A DNA stretch of 64,000 nucleotides from Armatimonadota bacterium (GTDB taxonomy: Bacteria > Armatimonadota > UBA5829), in NCBI GenBank assembly GCA_050948905.1, contig JBMNES010000001.1, forward strand, positions 2,272,083-2,336,082, in the 5' to 3' direction. A model generated the notes under the pieces. That model had not been told where the DNA came from. It did no database searches and worked only from the letters and a program-made list of their open reading frames with translations. The number at the start of each line of letters is the position of its first letter. Positions within the stretch are counted from its first letter, which is position 1. The translations under genes were made by a program, and so were the position numbers. Of the stretch, positions 54,448 to 55,158 are shown one piece after another.

Positions 54448-55158
54448 ATGAGCCGGGCATATAACATTTTTTGTGATGAGAGTTGCCATTTAGAAAATGA
54501 CCAGCAATCTGTAATGGTTTTAGGTGCGGTATGGTGTCCGACAGACAAGGTTAGCGAAAGTGCCCGGAAACTACGAGAGATAAAGCATCGTCATCATCTC
54601 AGCCCAGATTTCGAGATCAAGTGGACTAAGGTGTCGCCAGCAAAGCTAGACTTTTATCTTGATCTTCTGGATTATTTCTTTGATGATGACGATCTCCATT
54701 TTCGGGCATTGGTTGTGTCAGACAAGTCCAAACTGTGCCATCGAGCCTTTTGTCAGACTCACGATAGCTGGTACTACAAAATGTTGTTCGAGATGTTGAA
54801 AGTGCTGTTGACACCCAACGACACATTCAATATATATCTTGATATTAAAGATTCTCGTAGTGCCGATAAAGTCAGGATGCTGCACGAAGTTCTCTGCAAT
54901 AACCTCTACGACTTTAGAAGAGAAATTATTGGCAAGGTTCAAAATGTCCGATCTCACGAAGTCCAGCACGTTCAACTCGTCGATTTGTTAGTTGGTGCAG
55001 TGAGTTATCTTAATCGAGGCTTGGCGGGTAACTCAGCAAAGATTGCATTTATTGAAAAGATGAGGCAGCGGTCGTCATATTCATTGACTAAGACTACTTT
55101 ATTGCGTGAGGACAAGGTAAATTTGCTCATATGGGAGCCCGCCGAGGTGCAAACCTGA
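54448..55158 (+). CDS. Island protein 1: DUF3800-like (recalled resemblance only) protein with an N-terminal CDESCH motif
   Basis: The local GC is clearly lower than in flanking genes. MSRAYNIFCDESCHLENDQQSVMVLGAVWCP.. resembles the DESG-type N-terminus of DUF3800 (predicted RNase-H-like fold) as I remember it. Not verified. Confidence 0.6.
   Translation: MSRAYNIFCDESCHLENDQQSVMVLGAVWCPTDKVSESARKLREIKHRHHLSPDFEIKWTKVSPAKLDFYLDLLDYFFDDDDLHFRALVVSDKSKLCHRAFCQTHDSWYYKMLFEMLKVLLTPNDTFNIYLDIKDSRSADKVRMLHEVLCNNLYDFRREIIGKVQNVRSHEVQHVQLVDLLVGAVSYLNRGLAGNSAKIAFIEKMRQRSSYSLTKTTLLREDKVNLLIWEPAEVQT

Follow-up and report, generated by a model that had tools for sequence, protein, structure and literature searches.

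Eleven structured RNA motifs, DUF3800-I to DUF3800-XI, are associated with genes of the DUF3800 family (Weinberg et al. 2017, PMC5737381), and type VII retrons pair a reverse transcriptase and a non-coding RNA with a DUF3800 effector (PMC7736814). The signature of the family has been given as an N-terminal DE and a C-terminal QxxD, and an RNase H2-like fold is predicted for the retron proteins (PMC7736814). The same fold, with a 'catalytic rearrangement' according to AlphaFold2, has been assigned to the TPR-DUF3800 proteins associated with Cas12a2 (PMC10910872). From another direction, the PDC candidates of PADLOC were derived by their embedding within known systems ('guilt-by-embedding', Payne et al.; 10.1101/2024.01.29.577857). 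Here we describe a locus in a stretch of 64,000 nucleotides (nt) of contig JBMNES010000001.1 from an Armatimonadota bacterium (the whole stretch is hereafter the window), in which a DUF3800 gene (gene A), a second protein-coding gene (gene B) and an oppositely oriented small-RNA gene form a three-part cassette (Table 1). We are highly confident of the family, the fold and the three-part make-up described below. The DUF3800 name of gene A, its match to the candidate system PDC-M04 and its similarity to RlfA of phage P1 are already retrievable from existing resources. The RNA part, its universality in the cassette and its solitary copies in phages appear to be unreported: Rfam 15 lacks the RNA, the P1 and phi3T records do not annotate it, and the DUF3800 literature that we searched does not mention it.

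Relatives of gene A were sought in one genome per species, which gave at least 587 loci, and 80 loci from at least 17 phyla were kept for comparison. The phyla include Chloroflexota, Acidobacteriota, Pseudomonadota, Desulfobacterota, Bacteroidota, Nitrospirota, Chlamydiota, Planctomycetota, Verrucomicrobiota, Cyanobacteriota, Bacillota and Patescibacteria. B directly follows A in 77/80 loci, and identity to the window copy is 57-69% for A and 28-56% for B; thus, the nuclease is near-constant and its partner is diversifying. In a scan of the flanks, ~50 nt after the B stop codon matched in 67 of the 80 loci, with a DNA identity of 73-100% that is mostly in the range 80-95%; the coding DNA is only 64-67% identical, and the upstream flank of the cassette showed no conservation among the 80 loci. 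The RNA core, CTCATCYRCCATGTGYRGAAGGAG, lies on the strand opposite A and B and has a near-invariant hairpin (CUCAUCYRCCAUGUGYRGAAGGAG). Searched as a regular expression, it occurs exactly once, immediately after B, in 75 of the 80 loci, in P1 and in the window. A covariance model (R1) built from 76 copies, the window sequence included, recovers the five loci missed by the regular expression at the same place. One locus (L065) ends at a contig edge and was excluded from the evaluable loci; with both methods combined, the small RNA is present in 79/79 evaluable loci and in P1. The R1 score of the window copy (80.9 bits) is expected by construction, as this sequence is in the seed, and no second R1 match was found in the 64-kb window.

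The transcript likely extends from ~55716 to 55638, a length of ~80 nt. Its order is hairpin 1, a short linker, a variable GC hairpin and a U-tract antisense to the last B codons. Hairpin 1 consists of a 3-bp outer stem, an internal loop, a 5-bp inner stem and a CAUGU loop; the commonest inner stem is UCUAC/GUAGA, and that of the window is UCCAC/GUGGA. Over the whole RNA, 96.5% of cells are paired when the RNA strand is read, compared with 87.1% on the A-B sense strand, and G.U pairs number 137 on the RNA strand versus 10 on the A-B sense strand. None of 500 shuffles reaches the observed values, and pairing in slid controls is 40-56%. Of the 18 RNA pairs, 10 show compensatory changes: the hairpin 1 helix, in which 99.7% of cells are paired, has them at pairs 18-31 and 19-30, and both sides have changed in 8/10 pairs of helix 2, the terminator. 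The window RNA has a minimum free energy of -33.1 kcal/mol (z = -5.9).

Signals for transcription accompany this structure. The window promoter (TTGACT-17-CATAAT) has 10/12 consensus matches and lies ~12 nt further upstream than in most relatives. A -35/-10 pair at fixed distance is present in 57/76 loci versus 3.5 +/- 1.7 in shuffles, and the count rises to 62/76 when displaced pairs are allowed. The terminator, which was found both as an inverted repeat (I7) and by a minus-strand terminator scan, is antisense to the last codons and the stop of B, and therefore probably also ends the A-B transcript. A small ORF (open reading frame) within the RNA was considered, as an ATG follows AAGGAG in the window, and was rejected because this ATG is unconserved. 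A pairing of the 5' CUCAU of the RNA with the AUGAG at the start of A was considered too: the Ser2 codon is AGY in 37 of ~80 loci, a count confounded by ATGA overlaps and by variable second residues.

The linker between the two hairpins falls into subtypes that track gene B. Loci with UAACGA-like linkers have a mean B identity to the window B of 48% and those with AUCUU-like linkers 30.5%; identity of A is equal in both groups (62-63%). The AUCUU linker was seen in loci L005, L008, L011, L014, L016, L024, L027, L029, L040, L055, L066, L070, L075 and L076. This link between linker and B could reflect either co-inheritance or co-evolution, and the pattern suggests that B and the RNA are exchanged, or are co-evolving, as one module.

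Table 1. Coordinates in the window of the cassette and of the two tRNA genes upstream of it.
Feature	Position	Strand	Evidence and detail
Gene A (DUF3800 protein, PDC-M04A, RlfA homologue)	54448..55158	+	ORF, Pfam, PADLOC, AlphaFold2, Foldseek
Gene B (PDC-M04B, RlfB homologue)	55158..55649	+	PADLOC, gene call in public contigs, AlphaFold2
Sigma70-type promoter of small RNA	55723..55751	-	Promoter scan; -35 TTGACT 55751-55746, -10 CATAAT 55728-55723
Small-RNA match to covariance model R1	55625..55713	-	cmsearch
Hairpin 1 of small RNA	55678..55701	-	Minus strand 5'-CUCAUCCACCAUGUGUGGAAGGAG-3'
Terminator of small RNA	55638..55673	-	GC hairpin 55673-55648, then AGCCUUUUUG 55647-55638
tRNA-Gly(CCC)	54139-54213		Directly upstream of cassette
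tRNA-Cys(GCA)	54218..54292	+	ARAGORN, Rfam; context, outside cassette

Gene A is an ATG-to-TGA ORF of 236 amino acids (aa), the translation of which starts MSRAYNIFCDESCHLENDQQSVMVLGAVWCP and includes FFDDDDLHF. It is a conserved gene, and a chance ORF is ruled out: the identical protein is encoded on 25 public contigs (the largest of 3.05 Mb), carries the NCBI label 'MAG: DUF3800 domain-containing protein [Armatimonadota bacterium]' and has more than 7,700 homologues. In Pfam it matches PF12686 (DUF3800) at E=7.6e-14 over profile positions 1-148/149, with 53.1 bits against a gathering score of 21, and no other family; NCBIfam gave no useful model for A or B. Residue conservation was read from an alignment of 39 sequences with 64-75% identity. 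Invariant in it are C9 D10 E11 S12 C13 H14 (the CDESCH motif), E56, K58, D92 K93, H105 D106, D132, K134 D135 and H146 and, in the C-terminal part, S169 H170 E171, Q176 and D179. The DUF3800 signature is present as D10-E11 and Q176-L-V-D179, and D10, E11, D132 (and/or D92, D135) and Q176-x-x-D179 are candidate catalytic residues. Several cysteines and histidines surround the catalytic DE (C9, C13 and H14 at 54472-54489, also C30 and C150); they are invariant or near-invariant, in the contexts CDESCH, WCP and LCNN, and may form a metal site with no counterpart in canonical RNase H2.

The AlphaFold2 model of A has a mean predicted local distance difference test score (pLDDT) of 87.5 and a predicted template modelling (TM) score of 0.87. 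A Foldseek search of the PDB with this model places RNase HII/H2 chains of archaea or eukaryotes in all of the top 20 positions, with RNase HIII coming next; the matches, which include 1eke, 2dff, 3p83 and 3puf, have E-values of 2e-6 to 6e-4, a probability of 1.00, a TM-score of ~0.5 and 10-16% identity. On the model D10/E11 close strand 1, D132 comes after strand 126-131, and D179 lies within helix 173-189, which follows strand 161-166. Judged by the topology of the model, these carboxylates are at the positions expected for an RNase-H-type set. Gene A thus shares with type 2 RNase H its overall fold and an adjacent Asp-Glu ending strand 1, but identity is just 10-16%, and A adds the invariant C9, C13 and H14. 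At the sequence level Pfam does not place A in the RNase HII family, and a PDB profile search with the A sequence returned no related chain and no RNase H chain. A first-pass annotation, which had seen the DNA and its ORFs alone, had described this ORF with its CDESCH and acidic motifs and had guessed at DUF3800, at PF12686 as its accession and at an RNase-H-like fold. The ORF and the motifs are exactly where they were placed, the accession is correct, and the Pfam score and the structure search, which points to type-2 RNase H, bear out the family and the fold. The role of effector or sensor that it had also proposed for the gene is a possible one; neither the P1 homology of gene B nor the RNA gene had been recognized in it.

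Gene B encodes 163 aa, and its ATG shares one base with the TGA of A (TGATG), so that B is translationally coupled to A. PADLOC identifies A as PDLC04353 (E=1.2e-94, 314 bits) and B as PDLC04357 (E=3e-69, 230 bits), the A-type and B-type genes adjoining on one strand, as PDC-M04 is defined. Like PDC-M04, the locus has full-length matches of both proteins, adjoining co-stranded genes and relatives embedded in type I restriction-modification (R-M) operons. The definition of PDC-M04, however, is of two proteins, to which this locus and its 79 evaluable relatives add a small-RNA gene, and the window copy, differently from the way in which PDC-M04 was derived, lies outside any other system. The AlphaFold2 model of B has a pLDDT of 92.5. 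A Pfam search found no family in any of 39 members, a PDB sequence search found no relative, and a fold search of BFVD returned a single uncharacterised member of B's own family. The best Foldseek PDB matches are RelE/HigB-like and weak (E 0.24), and we do not claim a RelE fold. An exhaustive profile search with B gave 1,612 representative clusters; the best 150 of these contain no domain fusions and are nearly all of ~110-190 aa, with two longer members of 226 and 255 aa. P7, Y27, F61, H63, R74, R80, R83, W86, W102 and Y122 are conserved across the family, and the one histidine and several arginines hint at nucleic-acid binding.

By tblastn, the A-B pair was found in P1, in P7 and in a phage of Bifidobacterium, and gene A on 108 plasmid records, most of which are P1-like phage-plasmids. 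Identity to the P1 proteins is 50% for A (RlfA, over 228 aa) and 41% for B (RlfB, over 150 aa); both proteins are similar over their full length, and the gene order is the same. The gene overlap of P1 RlfA/RlfB (P7 RapA) is identical to that of the window, again of 1 nt (rlfA ends at 52444, where rlfB starts), and the RNA hairpin is found on the strand opposite rlfB, 43 nt beyond this gene, at a site without annotation in the P1 record. The P1 pair follows repL, behind a C1 operator, whereas the window pair is chromosomal, in an Armatimonadota genome. The P1 genes are labelled 'possibly associated with lytic replication', and this label rests on their position. P1-like plasmids that have lost rlfA/rlfB exist (PMC6906374).

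Among described RNAs, the closest are the DUF3800 motifs (RF02969, RF02968 and others), which, like the window RNA, adjoin a DUF3800 gene in either orientation and often have a Rho-independent terminator. The window RNA differs from DUF3800-I to -XI in that it matches no Rfam 15 model, is linked to the RlfA subfamily and has solitary copies in phages. Around gene A, Rfam 15 gave only two tRNAs and no family for the RNA (E<=10 over 161 nt of the window, E<=1 in six other loci); this release holds at least the DUF3800-I and DUF3800-IX motifs. As a conserved structured RNA with covariation that stands beside a DUF3800 gene in all 79 evaluable loci, it would be a further class of DUF3800-associated RNA. 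Type VII retrons resemble the cassette in that a DUF3800 protein with an N-terminal DE and a predicted RNase-H2-like fold is paired with a structured nucleic acid. On the other hand, the retron DUF3800 proteins lack the Q of QxxD, which gene A retains in Q176-x-x-D179, and no reverse transcriptase was found among the Pfam families of genes within 10 kb of gene A, so that the locus does not qualify as a type VII retron.

ToxIN offers an analogy of logic only: there, too, a nuclease gene comes with a dedicated small structured RNA that has its own promoter, and the RNA is found by itself in phages. A Kid/MazF-like RNase, ToxN, processes ToxI, which lies upstream of toxN as an array of tandem repeats. 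The cassette, by contrast, has a single hairpin RNA that is downstream and usually convergent, a nuclease of RNase-H fold and a second protein. With one hairpin unit per locus, placed downstream, it lacks the tandem repeats upstream of the toxin by which type III toxin-antitoxin (TA) systems are recognized.

Copies of the RNA are not confined to the cassette. A scan of metagenomes for the motif only gave 51 loci with enough flanking sequence, in 39 of which A and/or B are convergent to the RNA and in 12 of which there is nothing. Viral contigs gave at least 120 motif matches; of the 80 examined, which represent 42 distinct contexts, A-B stands beside the RNA in 13, so that solitary copies are enriched in viruses. 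DUF3800 is the commonest Pfam family near the viral motif (6/149 ORFs), and there is no other recurring partner. In at least 10 viral contexts, the RNA is found within phage tRNA arrays, on the tRNA strand and sometimes 4-14 nt after a tRNA 3' end (L155, L124, L111, L114, L129, L163, L098, L117, L118 and L116). Further solitary copies are located in unannotated intergenic DNA of phi3T-like Bacillus phages and of Vibrio phages (60 bits with the covariance model); that of phi3T is at 49058-49086 of KY030782 (L206 2493-2579).

The genomic setting of the cassette bears on its possible role. GC content is 45-46% at 54-56 kb versus ~53% around it. The first-pass annotation had called the gene part of an 'island', and this label is justified because the cassette is AT-rich and located directly downstream of tRNA-Gly and tRNA-Cys. 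In sibling contigs with 100% identical A, blastn identity to the window begins at 54246, within tRNA-Cys. Upstream of this break-point, the sibling islands (L082 and L083) hold genes for an integrase, UDG and type I R-M as well as two Gabija variants (GajA E=8.5e-201 and 1.7e-171; GajB E=5.6e-258 and 5.3e-144). The two islands, both inserted in the 3' part of tRNA-Cys, differ, and only the last 462 bp are common to both. The tRNA-Cys site is an integration hotspot of defence islands, bordered by the cassette.

Among the relatives, the nearest upstream gene is co-stranded with A in 60/74 loci, and its stop often overlaps the start of A. The upstream neighbour is a type I HsdS in 15/74 loci and the downstream neighbour an HsdR in 10/72, and tblastn located co-directional type I R-M genes in 29/80 loci, typically in the order hsdM-hsdS-[A-B]-hsdR. 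In at least 10 loci the upstream stop codon (often that of hsdS) overlaps the ATG of A (ATGA), so that translation of the cassette is coupled to that of the R-M operon in these genomes. The first-pass annotation had also linked the gene to defence: that link gains support from context only, through the PDC-M04 match and the type I R-M embedding of relatives.

On the other side of the cassette, a peroxiredoxin (AhpC/TSA) gene at 55896-56594 (minus strand) has been predicted as two separate ORFs (83 and 145 aa), but a single 232-aa protein results when an in-frame TGA (56345-56343), located exactly at the position of the peroxidatic Cys, is read through; a GC-rich hairpin-like stretch follows. 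The gene probably encodes a selenocysteine peroxiredoxin and is probably not a pseudogene.

We propose that nuclease A, the translationally coupled, fast-evolving B and the convergent ~80-nt small RNA would act together as an anti-phage or addiction module. The structured RNA would bind A, or A with B, and hold the nuclease inactive or programmed, much as the RNA antitoxin does in type III TA systems or as multicopy single-stranded DNA restrains the DUF3800 effectors of type VII retrons. Infection might then disturb the RNA or B and free A to cut nucleic acid, probably the RNA of RNA/DNA hybrids or structured RNA. Solitary RNA copies in phages, often situated in tRNA arrays, may serve as a decoy that silences the system. 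A role in defence or addiction is, in our estimate, somewhat favoured. As an overall explanation, an RNA-gated nuclease cassette that is anti-phage or addictive in function is the best that we can offer and stands at about even chances; the specific mechanism of RNA gate and decoy, which is drawn by analogy, is tentative and less likely than not.

The strongest competitor is a toxin-antitoxin or addiction module that stabilizes mobile DNA, such as the P1 plasmid prophage, R-M operons and islands, and has no direct anti-phage role, with A as the toxin and the RNA and/or B as the antitoxin. It would account for two small, tightly coupled genes, for a convergent small RNA that reaches into the 3' end of the operon, an arrangement known from some type I TA systems, for the plasmid records dominated by P1-like phage-plasmids, and for the horizontal spread of a highly conserved cassette across phyla. 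However, such a module is compatible with defence, since many TA modules abort infection, and the hsdS-hsdR embedding and the solitary RNA in tRNA arrays of lytic-type phages fit phage-host conflict more easily. We consider this reading unlikely, though a serious contender. Replication offers a different role for the same nuclease. The processing of primer RNAs by RNase H is established, and an RNase-H-like A could make a primer out of the small RNA or of an R-loop, in the manner of RNase H acting on ColE1 RNA II. The P1 pair directly follows repL/oriL behind the C1-controlled operator, and B matches PHROG 16230, which is labelled 'replication protein'. Yet the P1 label is positional, chromosomal copies lie in R-M operons or beside housekeeping genes with no replication genes nearby, rlfA/rlfB are non-essential for P1 (PMC10695390), and the P1-like plasmids without them persist (PMC6906374). 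A replication accessory is therefore improbable.

The hairpin might instead belong to a mobile element, as a single-stranded DNA end or recognition site in the style of IS200/IS605 or integron attC, with A as a DDE/RNase-H-fold transposase-like protein. Transposases do have an RNase-H-like fold, and folded single-stranded DNA tolerates G.T pairs. The cassette stands at many unrelated sites, with A at 57-69% identity across phyla, and has its conserved hairpin at one end only. We nevertheless rate this reading as very improbable: there is one copy per locus and per window, the fold matches of A are to RNase H2 and not to transposases, in at least 10 loci the stop codon of the preceding gene overlaps the ATG of A, and the hairpin has a conserved promoter and terminator and is co-stranded with tRNA genes in phage arrays. 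In addition, att-type direct repeats or terminal inverted repeats around the cassette are just short ones at chance level, and this, together with an upstream flank that is unconserved and has yielded no second end, argues against a transposon. Equally far from likely is that the RNA is a CRISPR-repeat-like unit, either a solitary-repeat anti-CRISPR or a crRNA-like regulator, that is only loosely related to A-B. The commonest form of its inner stem, UCUAC/GUAGA, may resemble the Cas12a crRNA handle. In favour of such a unit, Cas12a2/a3 loci carry TPR-DUF3800 genes (PMC10910872; 10.64898/2026.01.16.699850) and solitary CRISPR repeat units occur in phages (PMC10651486). But covariation is seen in the stem sequence itself, Cas12a repeats lack the invariant flanks CUCA...AAGGAG, there is one match per locus and no arrays were found, and the RNA occurs in at least 17 phyla whatever the CRISPR type, linked to A-B in 79/79 loci.

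Several observations weigh against the RNA-gated cassette that we favour. In this strain, it stands alone between the tRNA genes and the peroxiredoxin gene, outside a multi-system island, and ~50 of the 80 loci have no type I R-M gene within ~6 kb. The RNA is a single unit and not a repeat array as in type III antitoxins, and B is without a recognisable fold in the PDB, BFVD and Pfam searches. The RNA runs in the same direction as A-B in two viral loci, from which it follows that antisense pairing cannot be essential, and the solitary phage copies could have an RNA function of their own that is unrelated to A-B. We found no mention of PDC-M04 in the literature searched, and the 145 PDC systems are untested according to their own authors (10.1101/2024.01.29.577857). 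A CRISPR interference essentiality screen of P1 gave no phenotype for rlfA and rlfB, which were non-essential (PMC10695390), a result that neither supports nor excludes defence.

Overall, the comparison connects PDC-M04 to P1 rlfA/rlfB and thereby provides an immediate experimental system in E. coli. To our knowledge, the function of these two genes has remained unknown since the annotation of the P1 genome. The non-coding part of the cassette has been missed by protein-based catalogues, and constructs with the two ORFs only may be toxic or inactive. An RNA that travels alone in many phages is the pattern expected of RNA counter-defence. It is possible, although doubtful at present, that DUF3800 nucleases are RNA-controlled effectors, with the RNA as inhibitor or cofactor of the RlfA-type nuclease and the solitary phage copies as decoys. 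If true, the cassette would represent a new RNA-gated defence class, and a function could be assigned to the DUF3800 family as well as to the many RNA motifs associated with it. The presence of a dozen unrelated structured RNAs beside DUF3800 genes, which has lacked an explanation since the association was described (Weinberg et al. 2017), would then also be accounted for.

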